Of a stretch of 64,000 nucleotides of DNA, positions 26,422-63,545 are shown one piece after another. Source of the DNA: a virus. The position numbers were made by a program, and so were the translations under genes. The stretch is taken from the IMG/VR virus record IMGVR_UViG_3300034095_000847; one strand, 5' to 3'. The first letter of the stretch is position 1; every line of letters starts with the position of its first letter. The notes beneath the pieces are model-generated. The model was not told the origin of the DNA and ran no database searches. It was given only the letters and a program-made list of their open reading frames with translations.

Positions 26422-27825
26422 ATGGAATTAAATCGTTCTGCCCTTTTAGAAAAATGGGCTCCTGTAATTGACGCTGATGGCGCTCCTGCTATTAAAGACT
26501 TTACTCGTCGTGGTGACTTAGCTGTTATCCTAGAAAACCAACAACGTGAAATGAATGCTGCTAGTCAAGCTAACGGTATGCTTTTCGAAGCTGGTACAGG
26601 CGGTGTTTCTACTAACATTGGTGGTGGTGGCAACTATGGTGTCAATACTACTGGTACTGGTACATACAATGCTGGCGCTGCTGGTACTGGTGGTGTAGCT
26701 GGTTTTGATCCTGTGTTGATTAACTTAGTACGTCGTGCTATGCCTCAGTTGATTGCATATGATGTTGCTGGTGTTCAACCAATGACTCAACCAACTGGTT
26801 TGATTTTTGCAATGAAATCTCGTTACACTAGTCCAAGTGGAACAGAAGCATTGTTTAACGAAGCAAACACTAGCTTTACTGGTACTTCAGGCGCTACTGG
26901 TACTGATCCTACCGGCGCTACTGGTTTATCAACTGGTTCATACCAAACTGGTTTAGGTTTGTCTACTGCTAATGCTGAAATTTTAGGTTCTACTTCAGGT
27001 GAAGCATTTCCTGAAATGGCATTCTCAATTGAAAAAACTTCAGTTGTTGCTAAAACTCGTGCATTGAAAGCTGAATACTCTATCGAATTAGCACAAGACT
27101 TGAAATCAGTTCATGGTCTTGACGCTGAAGGCGAATTAAGCAAAATTCTTTCTACTGAAATTCTTGCTGAAATTAACCGTGAAGTTATTCGTACTATCTA
27201 CACTGTTGCTAAACAAGGTGCTGCTGTTGGTACTGCTACTGCTGGTATTTTTGATCTTGACGTTGACTCTAATGGTCGTTGGTCAGTTGAAAAATTCAAA
27301 GGTTTGTTGTTCCAAATCGAAAGAGAAGCTAACGCTATCGCTCAACAAACACGTCGTGGACGTGGTAACTTCATCATCTGTTCTTCAGATGTTGCTTCTG
27401 CTTTAGCAATGGCTGGTGTATTAGATTATGCTCCTGCTCTTTCTACTGGTTTGAATGTTGATGAAGCATCTACTACTTTTGCTGGTATCTTAAACGGCAA
27501 ATATAAAGTTTATGTTGATCCTTACACTGGTGGTAACAACCCATCTGCTGCTGGTCTACAATTCTTTACTGTAGGTTATAAAGGTACTTCTGCGTTTGAC
27601 GCTGGTTTGTTCTATTGCCCATATGTTCCATTGCAAATGGTTCGTGCGGTTGATCCACAAACTTTCCAACCTAAAATTGGCTTCAAAACTCGTTACGGTA
27701 TGGTTGCTAACCCAATGGTTGATATTGATGACGCTTCAATGTCTGCTACTTCAAATGCTGACAACTCAATGACAGCTCGTAAAAATTATTATTATCGGAT
27801 CGTGAAAGTTACAAATTTAATGTAA
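26422..27825 (+). CDS. gp23: major capsid protein gp23
   Basis: LVRRAMPQLIAYDVAGVQPM, RALKAEYSIELAQDLK, YCPYVPLQ, GFKTRYG. Confidence 0.98.
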   Translation: MELNRSALLEKWAPVIDADGAPAIKDFTRRGDLAVILENQQREMNAASQANGMLFEAGTGGVSTNIGGGGNYGVNTTGTGTYNAGAAGTGGVAGFDPVLINLVRRAMPQLIAYDVAGVQPMTQPTGLIFAMKSRYTSPSGTEALFNEANTSFTGTSGATGTDPTGATGLSTGSYQTGLGLSTANAEILGSTSGEAFPEMAFSIEKTSVVAKTRALKAEYSIELAQDLKSVHGLDAEGELSKILSTEILAEINREVIRTIYTVAKQGAAVGTATAGIFDLDVDSNGRWSVEKFKGLLFQIEREANAIAQQTRRGRGNFIICSSDVASALAMAGVLDYAPALSTGLNVDEASTTFAGILNGKYKVYVDPYTGGNNPSAAGLQFFTVGYKGTSAFDAGLFYCPYVPLQMVRAVDPQTFQPKIGFKTRYGMVANPMVDIDDASMSATSNADNSMTARKNYYYRIVKVTNLM

Positions 27826-27856
27826 TAAAATCAATTACTTAGGTAATTTTAAAATT

Positions 27857-27883
27857 AGAAGGGTCTTTTGACCCTTCTTTTTT
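27857..27883 (+). terminator. rho-independent terminator after gp23
   Basis: AGAAGGGTC-TTTT-GACCCTTCT plus T tract. Confidence 0.85.
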
Positions 27884-27916
27884 ATTTTGATAGATTAATG
27901 GCTTTAATAAATCATT

Positions 27917-27991
27917 AATAAATAAGTTGTAGATCACGGATCCCTCAATCCTATCTACTCTAAACATTCTAACAACTATTAAGGAACAGTT
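27917..27991 (+). promoter_or_regulatory. late promoter (AATAAATA) plus structured leader of endonuclease gene, copy 1
   Basis: Homologous to 29848-29923, with compensatory stem changes. Confidence 0.75.
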
Positions 27992-28783
27992 ATGTCCAGC
28001 ACAAATATATATTCAATATATCTTATAACAAATTTAATCAATAATAAGAAATATATTGGTTATACATCAAATAAATTAGGTCATAGATTTAATGACCATT
28101 GTAAAACTACCAAACCAAAATATCAAGAAAGATCTCCTTTATCTTTTGCTATTGAAAAATATGGCAAACACAATTTTTCTTATAATGTTATTTTGCAATC
28201 TAATGATTATGAATATTGCAGATTAATAGAAACTGATTTTATTATTCAATATAATTCATTGACTTCTACTCAAGGAGGTCATGGTTATAATATAGATAAA
28301 GGCGGAAGGGGTCATAAAAGATCACCTGAAACTATTGAAAAACATAGACAAAAAATAAAAGGTAGACCTCAATCAGAAGAACATAAACTAAAAAAAGGGT
28401 TTAAATCGGGTAATCAAAGTGGTAAAAAAAATAAAGGTAAGACTCGTACAGAAGAGCAAAGAAAAACATATAGTGAAATGATGAAAAATAATATATCATC
28501 TGGAAAAAGATTAGCTTGTGGGGTTGACAGAGATTGGAAAAATGACTATCCAGAATCATTAAAAAAGATGAAACAAACAAAATATAATAATAGAATAATA
28601 AACAATAAATTTAAAAATGTAGTAATTAAAAATATAATAACACAAGAATTACATCAACTAAACCATAATTATCAAGATTTCTTTAAAGAACATAACTTAA
28701 ATAATTTTATGGCTAAATGTATAAAAAATAATGCATGTAATATAAAAGGTTTTATGTTAGTTTCTTATGAATTAAATGGATAA
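27992..28783 (+). CDS. free-standing GIY-YIG homing endonuclease (Seg-like)
   Basis: SIYLITNLINNKKYIGYT...RFNDH...GYNI; NUMOD3-like repeats (RSPETIEK, SEEHKLK, RTEEQRK). Confidence 0.88.
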   Translation: MSSTNIYSIYLITNLINNKKYIGYTSNKLGHRFNDHCKTTKPKYQERSPLSFAIEKYGKHNFSYNVILQSNDYEYCRLIETDFIIQYNSLTSTQGGHGYNIDKGGRGHKRSPETIEKHRQKIKGRPQSEEHKLKKGFKSGNQSGKKNKGKTRTEEQRKTYSEMMKNNISSGKRLACGVDRDWKNDYPESLKKMKQTKYNNRIINNKFKNVVIKNIITQELHQLNHNYQDFFKEHNLNNFMAKCIKNNACNIKGFMLVSYELNG

Positions 28784-28788
28784 TTAGT

Positions 28789-28810
28789 GGGGCCGAAAGG
28801 CCCCTTTTTT
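28789..28810 (+). terminator. rho-independent terminator
   Basis: GGGGCC-GAAA-GGCCCC-TTTTTT. Confidence 0.9.
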
Positions 28811-28856
28811 ATGTCAGAAATATATAATAAATAGTAAAACACTATCAGGTACTATA

Positions 28857-29387
28857 ATGGCAATAACAACTACATGTCCGTTTCCAACAAATATAAATCC
28901 ACTATCAAGTAATGGGTTTAATTTTTCTATTTCAAAATTACCGGAAGTATCATTCTTTTGTCAAGAAATTAATCTTCCAGGTATGTCTTTACCTACATTT
29001 GAAGTGAACACTCCTTTATCGGCTTTGCCATTTAGTGGGGAAATACTTTCATTTGAAGATCTAAATATACAGTTTATTATAGATCAAAATATGAGTAATT
29101 ATATTGCTGTATATAATTGGATGATAGGACTTGGTTTTCCAGAAGATAATAATCAATTTACTGATTTTATTAATTTACAAGATACAGGGTATAGTAGAAC
29201 AAGTAAAGAATATTCTGATGCTACTTTGCAAATATTAGGAAGTAATAATCTACCGGTAAAAACTGTAAAGTTTATAGATATTCTACCATTGAATTTAAGT
29301 TCAATGAATTTTCTATCTACAAATACAGATGTATCATATTTAGTTGGGAATGTAACATTTAAAATAAGTAGATACGAATTTATATAA
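28857..29387 (+). CDS. gp3: tail tube terminator gp3
   Basis: NPLSSNGFNF...FFCQEINLPG...NYIAVYNWM...SDATLQIL. Confidence 0.85.
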   Translation: MAITTTCPFPTNINPLSSNGFNFSISKLPEVSFFCQEINLPGMSLPTFEVNTPLSALPFSGEILSFEDLNIQFIIDQNMSNYIAVYNWMIGLGFPEDNNQFTDFINLQDTGYSRTSKEYSDATLQILGSNNLPVKTVKFIDILPLNLSSMNFLSTNTDVSYLVGNVTFKISRYEFI

Positions 29388-29401
29388 TTTTTGAGGATAT
29401 T

Positions 29402-29842
29402 ATGGCTACAATTGATGAACTTTTATCAGAATGGGATGACGATTCTGTAATGGACGACAATCATATCTCGAATGAATCCATTCGAGTTCCAAAGTTGCAT
29501 GCTAAGTATATAAGATATTTAATGCAGGCAAAACTTAAAGTTACAAAATATAATAATGATTATAATGTTCTAAAAAAGACTAAGTTTAGATACTATAGAG
29601 GCGAACTTTCAAGAGAAGAATTGTCTACCTTGCAATGGGAACAATGGTTAGGTGTCAAACCTATGAAGAATGAGATGGATCAATTTCTTGATGGTGACAC
29701 TGATCTTAACAATATGAAAGTTAAAATAGAATATTTACAAACTATGAGTTACCTACTTGAATCTATCCTAGGTCAAATAAAAGCTAGAGATTGGCAATTA
29801 AAAACCGTTCTAGAACATAAAAAGTTTTTAGCTGGAAATTAA
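29402..29842 (+). CDS. uvsY: recombination mediator UvsY
   Basis: ESIRVPKLHAKY...RYYRGE...IKARDWQLK. Confidence 0.9.
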   Translation: MATIDELLSEWDDDSVMDDNHISNESIRVPKLHAKYIRYLMQAKLKVTKYNNDYNVLKKTKFRYYRGELSREELSTLQWEQWLGVKPMKNEMDQFLDGDTDLNNMKVKIEYLQTMSYLLESILGQIKARDWQLKTVLEHKKFLAGN

Positions 29843-29847
29843 AAATA

Positions 29848-29923
29848 TATAAATAAGTATAGGTCACGGAACTGCAATTCCTACCTATTCTAAACATTCT
29901 AACAACTATTACAAGGAACAGTT
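29848..29923 (+). promoter_or_regulatory. late promoter (TATAAATA) plus structured leader of endonuclease gene, copy 2
   Basis: Homologous to 27917-27991. Confidence 0.78.
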
Positions 29924-30616
29924 ATGTCCAGCGAAACTATATATCAAGAAATAATTCCAACATATCTCTATATAAAACAACATTCAATTACTGGTCTAAA
30001 ATACTTTGGTAAAACAACCAATGATCCTTATACCTATAATGGATCTGGAGTTTATTGGAATGATCATATTAAAAAGCATGGTAAAGAACATATAGTTACA
30101 TTATGGGTGTCTAATCTATTTCATGATAAATCTATTGTTGATTATGCTTTACATTTCTCAGAAGAGAACAATATTGTAGAATCCAAAGAATGGGCAAACC
30201 AAAAACCAGAAAATGGTTTAGAAGGCGGGGCAACTACTAATGGAAAAATATGGATTAATAATGGTGTAACTAATTTGTATATACATAAATATGATCTTAT
30301 ACCACTAGGTTATAAAAAAGGAAGATTGTGCAAATTTAATGACCCTAATTTTCAAAGGGAAATGTCTTCTAAGGTAGATAGGATTAAACAATCAAATGCT
30401 ATGAAACAAAAATGGAATGAAGGAACGTTTATTAGAGATCATTCTAAATGTGGTAAAAAAGGTGCAGATAATGTCTCAAAAAGACCTGAAGTTAGAAATA
30501 AACTGTCTATAGTCGCTAAAAATAGACCCCTGATAACGTGTCCGCATTGTACTAAAATAGGAATAACCTCTCCTGGAATGTTTAAACACCATTTTGATAA
30601 TTGTAAAAATAAATGA
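29924..30616 (+). CDS. free-standing GIY-YIG-type homing endonuclease (Seg-like)
   Basis: YLYIKQHSITGLKYFGKT...YNGSGVYW; WINNG motif; C-terminal CPHC...HFDNC. Confidence 0.82.
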   Translation: MSSETIYQEIIPTYLYIKQHSITGLKYFGKTTNDPYTYNGSGVYWNDHIKKHGKEHIVTLWVSNLFHDKSIVDYALHFSEENNIVESKEWANQKPENGLEGGATTNGKIWINNGVTNLYIHKYDLIPLGYKKGRLCKFNDPNFQREMSSKVDRIKQSNAMKQKWNEGTFIRDHSKCGKKGADNVSKRPEVRNKLSIVAKNRPLITCPHCTKIGITSPGMFKHHFDNCKNK

Positions 30617-32100
30617 TTAAAGTTGAAAAATTTAATGAATCTTATATTAGAATATTTTCTGATAAATCCATTGAACAAGAACTATCTGATTTCTTTAAAT
30701 TTAGAGTTAAAGGATATCAATATATGCCAGCATATAAAGCTGGCATGTTTGATGGGTTTGTTAGACTGTATAACCTGCAAACTAAAACTCTTTATGCTGG
30801 TTTATTACAGTATGTTAAAGAATTTGCAAATAGAAATGATTATGAATTAACTATTGGCAAAGGTATAGAGAATTCAAATACATATTCTGAAAAAGATATT
30901 CAATTATTTGCAGATAGTCTTAATTTATCTGCTAGAGGTCAACCTATATCACTTAGAGATTATCAAGTAGATGCTCTTTTAAAAGCTCTTAATAGAAATA
31001 GAGTAACATTATTAAGTCCTACCGCTTCAGGTAAATCCGGTATTTTGTATGCTATAATGAGATGGCATCTAAATGCAAATAGAAAATTACTTCTGATAGT
31101 ACCTAATACCATGCTTGTTGAACAAATGTATTCAGATTTTGCCGATTATTCAAGCGCAAATGGATTTGATGTTGAACATAATGTACAAAAACTATATTCA
31201 GGATTTACAAAGGATTTTACTAAAAATGTTCTTATCTCTACATGGCAATCATTAATTACTATAAAACAAAAATCCTTTTATCAGCAATTTGATGTGGCTA
31301 TGGTTGATGAATGTCATCTTGCTAAAGCTGCTTCTATATCTGGTATTATGGAAAAATGTGTTAATACCAAATACAGGATTGGGGCTACAGGTACTATTGA
31401 CGAAAGTTCTAAAACTAATAAACTAACACTTGAAGGATTATTTGGACCAGTATATCAGGTAACTACAACCAAAAAATTAATGGATGAAGGTTCAGTAGTT
31501 AATCTAAAAATCAAGCAATTAATTCTTAAATATGATGAAGAAACATGTAAGATGTTTAAAGGTACTGAGTATATTAAAGAACTTGATTGGTTAGTTACAA
31601 ATCCTGTCAGAAATAAATTTATACGGAATTTAGCAATATCTACTACAGGCAATACTCTAGTACTTTTCAACTATGTACAAAAACATGGCAAAGTAATATA
31701 TGAAGATATAAAAAATAAAGTACATCAAGATAGACCTGTATTTTATATTCATGGAGGAGTTGATACAAAAGATCGTGAAGAAATTAGAAATGTATGCAGT
31801 AAATATAATAATGCAATAATAGTAGCCTCGTACGCGACTATGAGTACAGGTACTAATATGCCTTCAATAGAAAATATTATATTTGCTCATCCTTCAAAAT
31901 CTAAAATAAGAAATCTTCAATCTATTGGTAGAGGTCTACGTTTAAATGATGGTAAAAATGAATGCCGGCTTTTTGATTTAGTTGATGATCTACATTGGAA
32001 GTCTTGGAAGAATACCACGTTAACCCATGGCATAGAGAGATATAAGATATATATTACGGAGCAGTTTTTAGTTAACATAGTTGAAGTGGTGTTGAAATGA
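30613..32100 (+). CDS. uvsW: DNA helicase UvsW
   Basis: LRDYQ, SPTASGKS, DECH, LQSIGRGLR. Confidence 0.95.
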   Translation: MIKVEKFNESYIRIFSDKSIEQELSDFFKFRVKGYQYMPAYKAGMFDGFVRLYNLQTKTLYAGLLQYVKEFANRNDYELTIGKGIENSNTYSEKDIQLFADSLNLSARGQPISLRDYQVDALLKALNRNRVTLLSPTASGKSGILYAIMRWHLNANRKLLLIVPNTMLVEQMYSDFADYSSANGFDVEHNVQKLYSGFTKDFTKNVLISTWQSLITIKQKSFYQQFDVAMVDECHLAKAASISGIMEKCVNTKYRIGATGTIDESSKTNKLTLEGLFGPVYQVTTTKKLMDEGSVVNLKIKQLILKYDEETCKMFKGTEYIKELDWLVTNPVRNKFIRNLAISTTGNTLVLFNYVQKHGKVIYEDIKNKVHQDRPVFYIHGGVDTKDREEIRNVCSKYNNAIIVASYATMSTGTNMPSIENIIFAHPSKSKIRNLQSIGRGLRLNDGKNECRLFDLVDDLHWKSWKNTTLTHGIERYKIYITEQFLVNIVEVVLK

Positions 32101-61769: not shown

Positions 61770-62633
61770 ATGAGTGCATTATTAGAACGAATTAAAAAGA
61801 ATAGTACGATTAAAGATTCTTCAATATTATCATCTTCAAAGTTCTTTACTAAGAAAGATATGGTAACAACTCCAATCCCTGCTCTTAATATCGCATTATC
61901 CGGTAGAATTGATGGTGGATTAACTCCAGGTCTTACTTTATTTTGTGGACCAAGTAAGCATTTTAAATCATTATTCTCTTTGATACTTGCTAAGTCTTAT
62001 ATGGATAAGTATCCAGAATCTGTATTGATATTCTATGATTGTGAATTTGGTACGCCCGAATCTTATTTCGATTCTCTTGCCATTGATAAAGAACGGGTAA
62101 TACATACACCCATTATGAATATGGAAGAGTTTAAATTTGATGTAATACATCAATTACAAGAAATTAAACGTGGTGATAAAGTTATCTTTATTATAGATTC
62201 ACTTGGTAATATGTCGTCAAAGAAAGAAATGGACGATGCTATTGATGGTAAATCTGTTACAGATATGTCAAGAGCAAAGCAAATGAAGTCTATCTTTAGG
62301 ATGATAACTCCATATCTAGTTAAGTATGATATCCCAATGGTTGCAGTAAATCATATCTATATGTGTGGAACTGAAGAAATGGAAGTTATCTCAGATAAAG
62401 GATCTATAAGCTTAAAAGATATTATTCCAGGAATGTTAGTAGAAACTACTAAAGGTCTTCAACCAGTAACAAATGTTTTTAAATACGAAGATGCCTTTAT
62501 TACAGATATTGAAATGGAAGATGGAACTATATTATCATTTACTCAAGGTCATAAGTTTATGATAAATGGTGAATGGGTTTTAGTTGAGGATTTAGTTGAA
62601 GGAATGGAATTGGATGTGAAATCAGGTTTTTAA
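61770..62633 (+). CDS. uvsX: UvsX recombinase N-terminal fragment (198 aa) fused to a split-intein N-half (89 aa)
   Basis: GPSKHFKS Walker A, IDSLGN, AVNHIYM, then CGTEEMEV...FTQGHKF (intein blocks A and B) from 62364. Confidence 0.92.
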   Translation: MSALLERIKKNSTIKDSSILSSSKFFTKKDMVTTPIPALNIALSGRIDGGLTPGLTLFCGPSKHFKSLFSLILAKSYMDKYPESVLIFYDCEFGTPESYFDSLAIDKERVIHTPIMNMEEFKFDVIHQLQEIKRGDKVIFIIDSLGNMSSKKEMDDAIDGKSVTDMSRAKQMKSIFRMITPYLVKYDIPMVAVNHIYMCGTEEMEVISDKGSISLKDIIPGMLVETTKGLQPVTNVFKYEDAFITDIEMEDGTILSFTQGHKFMINGEWVLVEDLVEGMELDVKSGF

Positions 62634-63545
62634 TAAATAAATCATATATACATTTTAAAGGAATTAAAAATATGGATTATTTAAAGCATTATGAATTATT
62701 AATTAATAGAGCAAAAAATAGAACAAAACTTATTGGGTATATTGAAAAACACCACATTGTTCCTAGATGTGTAGGTGGTACTGATGATGAGGAAAATATT
62801 TGTGAATTAACTGCTGAAGAACATTATGTAGCACATCAACTTCTAGCAAAAATGAATCCAGATAATATAGGTTTATGGTCAGCCTGCAAATTGATGAGCA
62901 AAAGATGCGGGGTGACTAATAATAAAGTATATGGTTGGATAAGAAAAAAATCAAATATTTTGGTTGGCAAATCAATATCAAAATCTTATGTAGACAAGAA
63001 AGATAAAATTGCGATATTAGCAGGATTTAAAAATTATGACGATATTTCAAAAACCATATGGCACTTATTTATTAATGAAAAACTACATTATAATACTATA
63101 ACAGAAAAATTTGATATAAAACGCTATTTTGTGACAAAGTCTTTACAACAATATTCAGACAATAATAATTTAAGTGATATTTTTAAACAAGGCCAATATG
63201 ATCTTAAATGCAGAAGTCAAAAAATAGGTAGATCTAAATTTACAAAAGAACAAGAAACTTGTAGGATAAATTCGGTAAAATCTATGGATTATGCATCAAG
63301 AACATTGAAAACTGGAAGTAGAATTGGTGAATTAAATCCAGTATTTGGTAAAACTTGGGTACATAAAATTTTATTATGTCCGCATTGTAATAAAGAAGTT
63401 GGCGGTAAACGTTGGCATTTTGATAATTGTAGGAGTAAAAATGAAAATAAAATCGATTAAATTTAATACCAGAAGAGCAGATGTTTATGATATTGAGACT
63501 CCAACACATGATTATATATTAAAGAATGGAATAATTTCGCATAAT
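62364..63545 (+). mobile_element. naturally split intein (IntN 62364-62630, IntC 63441-63545) with an intervening HNH endonuclease gene
   Basis: Cys1, TxxH, VYDI, terminal SHN and Thr+1; the joined exteins restore a contiguous UvsX. Confidence 0.9.
62672..63460 (+). CDS. free-standing HNH homing endonuclease (MobE-like)
   Basis: YIEKHHIVPRCVGGTDDEENICELTAEEHYVAHQLL; C-terminal CPHC...WHFDNC; AAGGA RBS; AATAAATA at 62632. Confidence 0.88.
   Translation: MDYLKHYELLINRAKNRTKLIGYIEKHHIVPRCVGGTDDEENICELTAEEHYVAHQLLAKMNPDNIGLWSACKLMSKRCGVTNNKVYGWIRKKSNILVGKSISKSYVDKKDKIAILAGFKNYDDISKTIWHLFINEKLHYNTITEKFDIKRYFVTKSLQQYSDNNNLSDIFKQGQYDLKCRSQKIGRSKFTKEQETCRINSVKSMDYASRTLKTGSRIGELNPVFGKTWVHKILLCPHCNKEVGGKRWHFDNCRSKNENKID

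Follow-up and report, generated by a model that had tools for sequence, protein, structure and literature searches.

Homing endonucleases shape the evolution of phage genomes and the competition between co-infecting phages. To our knowledge, their control has been described only for a few T-even cases, and every one of these is an mRNA hairpin or autorepression. The hairpins of I-TevI, I-TevII, I-TevIII, segB, and Aeh1 mobE accompany a late promoter and sequester the ribosome-binding site (reviewed in PMC2988022). In the accessible text of Dassa et al. (2009; PMC2677866), hairpins are reported in 15 of 16 5′ untranslated regions of free-standing GIY-YIG and Vsr-like genes from the ‘fractured gene’ loci of marine T4-like phages. 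Ten of the 16 include TATAAATA, and the hairpins are interpreted there as translational mRNA leaders by analogy with Aeh1 mobE. In the cyanophage S-PM2, experiments have detected an antisense RNA, CfrI, that runs across the 5′ end of a homing endonuclease gene (Millard et al., 2010, as summarised in PMC2984593). The locus described here lies in a stretch of 64,000 nucleotides, referred to as the window, from the IMG/VR virus record IMGVR_UViG_3300034095_000847. The phage is a T4-like myophage of low G+C. Two leaders in the window, at 27917-28000 and 29848-29932, precede two dissimilar nuclease genes, HEG1 and HEG2. Each leader belongs to a very large family of cassettes, portable and about 80-100 bp long, that head free-standing homing endonuclease genes in uncultured T4-like phages. 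It is fairly probable, judging from the sequences, that the cassette is a gene for a cis-antisense RNA of about 85 nt that covers the nuclease gene's ribosome-binding site.

The two leaders are alike, as the original prediction had it, and in each a late promoter is joined by a covarying hairpin and by two stretches that do not differ between the copies. In the 64 kb, the 22-mer TCTAAACATTCTAACAACTATT is present exactly twice (0.03 expected), and it is followed in both copies by AAGGAACAGTTATGTCCAGC. Three pairs of the hairpin differ on both sides between copies 1 and 2, which confirms the proposed compensatory changes. The two proteins share an MSS start and are dissimilar thereafter. The hairpin is termed P2 here. 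In copy 1, it is built from 6 bp, C-A-C opposite U, 4 bp, and a 6-nt loop. The P2 fold energies of the window copies are -8.9 and -8.3 kcal/mol, with z about -3.5. A pairing of GGA(A)CA with TGTCC had been proposed to hide the Shine-Dalgarno sequence, but at about -3 kcal/mol it is a weak pairing, and the family does not conserve it. P1, which is the real second helix, is formed by CTAAACAT with ATGTCCAG. Since these two pair, the identical stretches make up the two arms of a single long hairpin that carries the Shine-Dalgarno sequence at its tip. In the window, P1 is extended by AACTATT with AACAGTT. Across the window, model R1 matched the two copies and nothing else. The ordinary late promoters of the window (NATAAATA sites) have leaders that are short, unstructured, and without the cassette. 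The possibility that the cassette is a typical late-gene leader of this phage was ruled out by these other NATAAATA sites.

Loci were first fetched through the HEG1 and HEG2 proteins. Diverged leaders among these loci (L015, L019, and L056/L057) were found to have the same hairpin with further compensatory changes. The hairpin was absent from the more distant GIY-YIG loci that were fetched in this way. Two independent pattern scans of viral contigs were then made. The pattern of scan 1 contained ATAAATA, TCACG, one A, and TCTARA, and left both stems unconstrained. Among the matches listed, about 75 of 90 distinct ones have a perfect 6-bp outer stem, which occurs in many sequences, and the inner stem varies. 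Scan 2 was anchored on TATAAATA, GGAG, CCAGC, and TATTTAT, with the hairpin and TCTARA unconstrained. The same bulged hairpin was present in 97 of 103 distinct matches among those listed. Because the hairpin was unconstrained in scan 2, it appears to be an obligatory part of the cassette. Together, the two scans gave at least about 170 distinct copies, which are located before GIY-YIG, HNH, NUMOD3, and Vsr-like genes. Promoter and hairpin are most often 5 nt apart (62 copies); 13 copies have a spacing of 4 nt and 16 have one of 3 nt. Both window copies carry hallmarks of the family. A forward (N)ATAAATA lies 3-5 nt before a hairpin of 6 bp, C-R-C/Y, and 4 bp. CTAR and 4 nt directly after the hairpin pair with ...CCAG by the start codon, and a free-standing nuclease gene is located downstream (for HEG2, the homing-endonuclease match is weak). 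The CAC internal loop was previously thought to be invariant. This did not hold in the family, where the loop is C-R-C and CGC is as common as CAC in the extra copies that the model found in the fetched loci and in scan 2.

A Pfam scan was made of 60 open reading frames (ORFs) downstream of cassettes, and most of them encode nuclease or homing-endonuclease DNA-binding domains. NUMOD3 was found in 18 of the 60, GIY-YIG in 10, and SegE_GIY-YIG in five. HNH was matched by 10, along with HNH_5 (four), HNH_3 (one), and HNH_4 (one). DUF559 (Vsr-like), the MTES_1575 nuclease, and the I-TevI DNA-binding domain were each matched by one ORF. Several of the 60 are without a Pfam match, and there are a few short remnants among them.

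Both helices covary across the family. In a sense alignment of 70 scan-1 copies, P2 is 99.4% paired, and 8 of its 10 pairs are changed on both sides. None of 500 shuffles was as good, and slid controls reached 33-50%. In the opposite-strand alignment A5, 98.4% of pairs are standard and 12 of 16 are double-changed, with slid controls at 31-50%. P1 consists of (T)CTAR and 4 nt directly after P2, paired with ...CCAG beside the start codon. It was counted on the scan-2 set (n=97), in which its 5′ strand was unconstrained, with fixed anchors and no optimisation. Pair k0 is C-G in 94/97 and k1 is U-A in 94/97. On the sense strand, k2 is A.C in 95/97, and k3 is G-C in 54/97, A.C in 40/97, and G.U in 0. 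The next three pairs are Watson-Crick in 82/97 (k4, four types), 92/97 (k5, four types), and 75/97 (k6), and k4-k6 each show three to four pair types. The signal is lost on register shifts of -2 to +2. The scan-1 set, in which the 3′ strand was unconstrained, gave the same picture, with k3 being A.C in 15/70 and never G.U. Two other pairings were considered and rejected. The 3′ arm of the inner stem could have served as an anti-Shine-Dalgarno that toggles with the real Shine-Dalgarno sequence, but the GATG/CATC and GATA/TATC classes mismatch their Shine-Dalgarno sequences. A pseudoknot between the P2 loop and CCAGC showed no complementarity by eye.

The non-Watson-Crick positions reveal which strand carries the fold. 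In both helices, every recurrent one is A.C when read on the gene strand and hence G.U when read on the opposite strand. In copy 1, for example, the sense A.C at 27962/27997 and 27963/27996 are G.U on the minus strand. The middle pair of P2 (R of C-R-C vs Y) is, on the sense strand, G-C in 55 copies, A-U in 20, A.C in 22, and G.U in 0 (Fisher’s test 1.9e-9, uncorrected for relatedness). The antisense fold is the more stable one in 95 of 97 cassettes, with a mean of -18.5 kcal/mol vs -13.7 kcal/mol for the sense fold. For the P1 region alone, the means are -7.7 (antisense) vs -2.7 kcal/mol (sense). The window leaders have antisense energies of -19.4 and -22.1 kcal/mol vs sense energies of -12.7 and -12.2 kcal/mol; copy 2 is the one with -19.4 vs -12.7. 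Because the fixed or frequent sense A.C is antisense G.U in both helices, the conserved fold is selected on the strand opposite to the mRNA. The leaders had been proposed to be a portable expression-control module. This remains in part, as the structure is selected and linked to nucleases (99.4% paired; most of the 60 ORFs), but the selected fold is not on the strand of the mRNA.

A second promoter motif faces the first one. In the 70 copies, a set that was not selected for TATTTAT, this heptamer lies exactly 5 nt after CCAGC in 37. It is displaced by 1-2 nt in about 17 more, and TATATAT occurs instead in 8. TATTTAT is ATAAATA on the opposite strand. Its frame gives T-I-Y in most copies, I-Y-L-Y in L142 and L092, and L-F-I in L069 and L103; L088 and CCAGCAATGCTATTTAT are further examples. 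The position of CCAGC also varies, being just before ATG or just after it, as in ATGTCCAGC. Thus, both are nucleotide-level elements and not codons, and the “MSS..IY” that the proteins share is a by-product. The opposite-strand order of ATAAATA, 5 nt, and GCUGG mirrors the forward order of TATAAATA, about 5 nt, and the first base of P2. T4 late transcription starts about 6 nt after TATAAATA. By this rule, a helix base would be the starting point of each RNA. Downstream of P2 on the opposite strand come AC and a U-rich stretch complementary to the forward spacer and promoter, an arrangement that resembles a terminator.

In the favoured reading, two late promoters would face each other across the cassette. 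From the forward (T/A)ATAAATA, about 5 nt upstream, the nuclease mRNA would start at the first base of P2. The reverse ATAAATA (sense TATTTAT, codons 5-7) lies 5 nt from the G of GCUGG (sense CCAGC), the putative start of the antisense RNA. P1 would be formed by GCUGG and 3-4 nt with the complement of CTAR and 4 nt, and its loop would contain an anti-Shine-Dalgarno sequence. The antisense RNA would therefore contain, in order, GCUGG, the 5′ hairpin P1, the terminator-like hairpin P2, and a U tail. Its pairing partner would be the entire 5′ leader of the late mRNA for the nuclease, including the Shine-Dalgarno sequence and, in the ATGTCCAGC form, the AUG. Such pairing would limit translation or trigger cleavage, and protection of the mRNA is less likely. 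What the sequences show is the family, its tie to nuclease genes, the two helices, the strand asymmetry, and the placing of the two promoter motifs, whereas activity of the reverse motif, termination at P2, and the sign of the effect are inferred.

These parts can be located in both window copies. In copy 1, a forward late-promoter-like octamer, AATAAATA, is present at 27917..27924 on the plus strand, with the hairpin 4 nt downstream after the spacer AGTT. P2 (sense GTAGAT-CAC-GGAT-CCCTCA-ATCC-T-ATCTAC) is at 27929..27958 on the minus strand and was matched by model R1 with 62 bits. On that strand it reads GUAGAU-A-GGAU...AUCC-GUG-AUCUAC and is followed by AACUUAUUUAUU. One strand of P1 (sense CTAAACAT), at 27960..27967 on the minus strand, pairs with 27992-27999. 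The other strand (sense ATGTCCAG), at 27992..27999 on the minus strand, takes in the HEG1 start codon. The Shine-Dalgarno sequence AAGGAA is at 27981..27986 on the plus strand, and its complement is at the top of P1 in the minus-strand fold. A reverse-strand promoter-like heptamer, ATATATA, is located at 28006..28012 (minus strand), 5 nt before G28000. The predicted antisense RNA of about 84 nt (27917..28000, minus strand) would start at G28000 with GCUGG, contain P1 and P2, and finish in U-rich sequence complementary to the forward promoter. Copy 2 has the forward late promoter TATAAATA at 29848..29855 on the plus strand. It is followed by the spacer AGT and by P2 (sense ATAGGT-CAC-GGAA-CTGCAA-TTCC-T-ACCTAT) at 29859..29888 on the minus strand, which model R1 matched with 69.5 bits. 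The P1 strands are at 29890..29897 (sense CTAAACAT), which pairs with 29924-29931, and at 29924..29931 (sense ATGTCCAG), which takes in the HEG2 start codon; both are given on the minus strand. Its Shine-Dalgarno sequence AAGGAA is at 29913..29918 on the plus strand, and its reverse-strand promoter-like heptamer ATATATA is at 29938..29944 (minus strand), 5 nt before G29932. The predicted antisense RNA of copy 2 would be about 85 nt (29848..29932, minus strand).

Several points weigh against the cis-antisense RNA. Both window copies have ATATATA, one mismatch from ATAAATA, at the position of the reverse promoter, so the antisense promoter may be weak or dead in this window. P2 is a non-canonical terminator, as its stem is interrupted, its outer stem has two to three G-C pairs, and the U tract begins 2 nt after the stem. 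A simple terminator scan of the minus strand did not call P2. The U tract is not independent evidence because it is forced by the forward promoter. The family counts are of sequences and not of independent events. Parts of the stretch are matched by 11 metatranscriptome runs, which are available as assembled contigs that carry neither strand nor ends. In the four of these runs that were compared, g23 and the tail-tube gene are covered and the leaders are not, and these data are silent on the expression of either strand. The P2 stems, if the middle pair is set aside, contain hardly anything but Watson-Crick pairs, and either strand can form P2. The cis-antisense RNA does not by itself explain the invariant flanking C...C of the P2 internal loop (G...G on the other strand). 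Finally, a further role on the mRNA is suggested by the forward promoter, which sets the predicted mRNA start precisely where P2 begins.

These last points bear on an alternative, the model of the original prediction, in which P2 is the 5′-terminal stem-loop of the late nuclease mRNA and acts in cis. It could protect the mRNA from 5′-end-dependent decay or bind a protein at the C-R-C/Y loop, and the rest of the leader would tune translation. The forward promoter lies 3-5 nt before P2, which by the T4 rule would put the mRNA start where the helix begins. With 99% Watson-Crick pairs, P2 also folds on the sense strand (-8.3 to -8.9 kcal/mol), and the C’s that flank the internal loop are invariant, as a recognition site would be. 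This is also the reading that was given to such hairpins in the accessible text of Dassa et al. (2009; PMC2677866). The alternative is unlikely, as P1, which covaries as strongly as P2, shows sense-strand A.C at two of its pairs (fixed at one, frequent at the other) and never G.U. Likewise, A.C occurs at the middle pair of P2 in 22 copies and G.U in none, and the P1 region folds on the sense strand with a mean of only -2.7 kcal/mol vs -7.7 kcal/mol on the antisense strand. A leader that works on the mRNA also gives no reason why the other strand should conserve an ATAAATA whose distance from CCAGC is fixed at 5 nt and which occurs in several frames.

The T-even mechanism known from I-TevI and mobE was also considered. 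In that mechanism, a hairpin on read-through RNA hides the ribosome-binding site, and the late RNA starts inside the hairpin and is translated. The cassette does have a late promoter immediately upstream, a structured leader, and a nuclease gene next, and on read-through RNA UAUAAAUA could in principle pair with the downstream UAUUUAU. It is nevertheless very improbable that the cassette works in this way. The predicted forward start is upstream of both helices, so late and read-through RNAs would share their structures. P2 is clear of the Shine-Dalgarno sequence and ends 22-24 nt before it, and the sense P1 is mismatched. Going by the sequences, the classical mechanism fails both of its defining features that could be tested, a Shine-Dalgarno sequence in the hairpin and a start inside the hairpin. 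The pairing of UAUAAAUA with UAUUUAU was rejected as well. In the window, the heptamer is TATATAT and the promoters are unchanged, so there is no compensation, and seven A-U pairs that close a 90-nt domain would be a very weak helix.

The favoured cis-antisense RNA can be taken further. The cassette could be a self-contained sense/antisense switch, and thus a new and very abundant class of phage small-RNA genes carried by unrelated nuclease families, with antisense RNAs that might act in trans. This extension is doubtful. Action in trans might be possible because cassettes of the same genome can have an identical P1 region while P2 differs, as in the window pair. The RNAs would then act across cassettes or across co-infecting phages, and would hold back homing nucleases either genome-wide or in competition. 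The fixed G.U and two bulged G’s would be a recognition site for a nuclease or for a chaperone.

Further features of the family were observed. Many contigs have two or more cassettes within a few kb (L146, L280, L179, L097, L138, L148, L149, L139, L132, and L104). The copies in L146, like those of the window, have an identical P1 region and different P2, and in L280 both helices differ. P2 loops occur as reverse-complement pairs (CGCCAA/TTGGCG, CGGCAA/TTGCCG, and CTGCAA/TTGCAG), and a self-complementary tetranucleotide, for example TGCA or GGCC, is present in many of them. This pattern may hint at a loop-loop contact or at a hairpin that is used in both orientations. The only cultured carrier that was found is the isolate Pseudoalteromonas phage vB_Psh_XG4. 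It has a diverged cassette at L291:1500-1575 (PP712099.1:56134-56183) before a GIY-YIG-like ORF. In this copy, the first P1 pair is changed on both sides (GTAG...CCAC for CTAG...CCAG), and both promoter motifs are degenerate. A blastn search with a family member against a phage collection (cultured phages) gave chance matches only. Model R1 found no match in metaG-MbCM1, HTVC008M, Aeh1, or S-CRM01. An exact search of viral contigs for the 22-mer returned near-identical strains only.

The genes around the two cassettes are those of a T4-like phage. The major capsid gene, g23, is at 26422-27825 (Pfam Gp23, E = 2e-141). HEG1 follows on the plus strand at 27992-28783 and encodes a GIY-YIG homing endonuclease of 263 aa (Pfam PF01541, E = 4.6e-7; phrog_314, E = 8e-25). 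A tail-tube-like gene (28857-29387) and uvsY (29402-29842) separate it from HEG2, which is on the plus strand at 29924-30616. HEG2 encodes a protein of 230 aa that is a probable SegE-like GIY-YIG endonuclease (YLYIKQHSITGLKYFGKT). It has no Pfam match, and its match to a PHROG homing-endonuclease family is weak (phrog_655, E = 9e-4). Its N-terminus has a YLY...YFGKT version of the GIY-YIG motif, and family members that share this N-terminus match PF19835 SegE_GIY-YIG. At 30613-30616, the stop of HEG2 overlaps the start of uvsW (30613-32100) in ATGA, and g55 comes next.

The window has strain-level relatives, which include one binned genome and several IMG/VR contigs. They are nearly identical to it from g23 to uvsW with two exceptions. 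One is the 3′ end of g23 and its terminator (27800-27891). The other is the C-terminal half of HEG1, which is about 40-70% identical (window 28392-28837 vs L013), with the catalytic N-terminal half and the leader being the same. Because only the C-terminal half has diverged, this looks like a swap of the DNA-binding module. A third nuclease gene, an HNH gene near 62.6 kb (62632-62700), lies between the halves of a split uvsX. It has a AATAAATA promoter and no cassette, and thus the cassette is not universal among the homing endonuclease genes of this phage. In a metatranscriptome contig (run X1), position 27795 is joined to 28803 with 74 other letters in between. This indicates a related phage without the whole HEG1 cassette, and HEG1 is therefore an optional insertion.

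The position of the cassette brings up the possibility that it is a DNA element. Its hairpins would form in single-stranded template DNA or as a cruciform, and would serve in recombination, repair-copying, or movement of the cassette, much as folded single-stranded sites do for integron cassettes or for the ends of IS200/IS605. The cassette is at the 5′ boundary of the optional insertion (27795-28803), and it is common to unrelated nuclease families, as if exchanged as a unit. The stems are almost wholly Watson-Crick, and since DNA tolerates G.T better than any other mismatch, single-stranded DNA of the bottom strand would also agree with the strand asymmetry. Even so, a DNA element is quite unlikely. 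There is no linked recombinase or transposase, and homing requires no donor site. An RNA accounts for the facing promoter motifs 5 nt from the helix bases and for the anti-Shine-Dalgarno sequence in the P1 loop, and a DNA element does not.

If the antisense RNA is real, the cassette would be a common and transferable RNA brake that GIY-YIG, HNH, and Vsr-like nucleases share among environmental T4-like phages. A large family of structured RNAs, absent from Rfam, would be gained, and the cassette would be a compact part with late promoters driving both strands. New nuclease families could also be sought with the cassette as a sequence tag, since a number of the downstream ORFs match nothing in Pfam. 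Should the antisense reading be wrong, the family would still be among the best-covarying unexplained phage leader elements.

The motif was not recognised in the original prediction. At gathering scores, Rfam 15 has 0 matches in the 64-kb window. Over 27850-30000, Rfam gave chance-level matches only; BTnc231 (18.7 bits vs gathering 80.4) overlaps copy 1 and has no counterpart on copy 2. The motif is not without precedent, as the accessible text of Dassa et al. (2009; PMC2677866) describes hairpins with TATAAATA and two complementary conserved motifs. The hairpins described there are probably this cassette, a match that was made by description and not by comparing motif sequences. Thus, the existence of the leader hairpin has very probably been published already. 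The loci are also alike in that the 3′ end of the endonuclease gene overlaps the start of the next gene, as in HEG2/uvsW. The accessible text makes no mention of antisense, of another helix, or of a promoter on the reverse strand. The literature searched contained neither the second helix nor the strand asymmetry, the facing promoter, or a family of this size and breadth.

Like the cassette, the T-even hairpins combine a late promoter with a structured leader that confines a selfish nuclease to late infection (PMC2988022). They differ in that they contain the ribosome-binding site and the late start is inside them, whereas the predicted start of the cassette is upstream of both helices. In addition, P2 is clear of the Shine-Dalgarno sequence, the fold is selected on the other strand, and model R1 has no match in Aeh1. 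Another comparison can be made to the PeSL cassettes of T4-type phages, which are repeats of a promoter and a stem-loop before variable genes and may mediate shuffling (Arbiol, 2010, PMC2839356; Comeau, 2014, PMC4122927). PeSLs have early sigma-70-type promoters, terminator stem-loops, and small ORFs of unknown function, whereas the cassette has T4 late-type motifs and nuclease genes. The word ‘late’ is not used in Comeau (2014; PMC4122927), and homing endonucleases appear there only as a separate route of exchange.

CfrI of S-PM2 is a precedent from a T4-like phage for an antisense RNA that is co-expressed with a homing endonuclease gene (PMC2984593, accessible text). It differs in being about 225 nt and in reaching into psbA. 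CfrI was considered as a possible member of the family and rejected, as the cassette model has no match in S-PM2, and it serves as a precedent only. A similar layout occurs in IS10/Tn10, where the promoter of RNA-OUT is inside the 5′ end of the selfish gene and faces the promoter of that gene (RNA-IN), and the small, stably folded antisense RNA covers the ribosome-binding site. The genes and the types of promoter differ, and the cassette, which is known from sequence alone, has T4 late promoters, two hairpins, and a fixed G.U. The finding thus joins two known kinds of control, the regulated leaders of homing endonuclease genes and the cis-antisense control of selfish genes.

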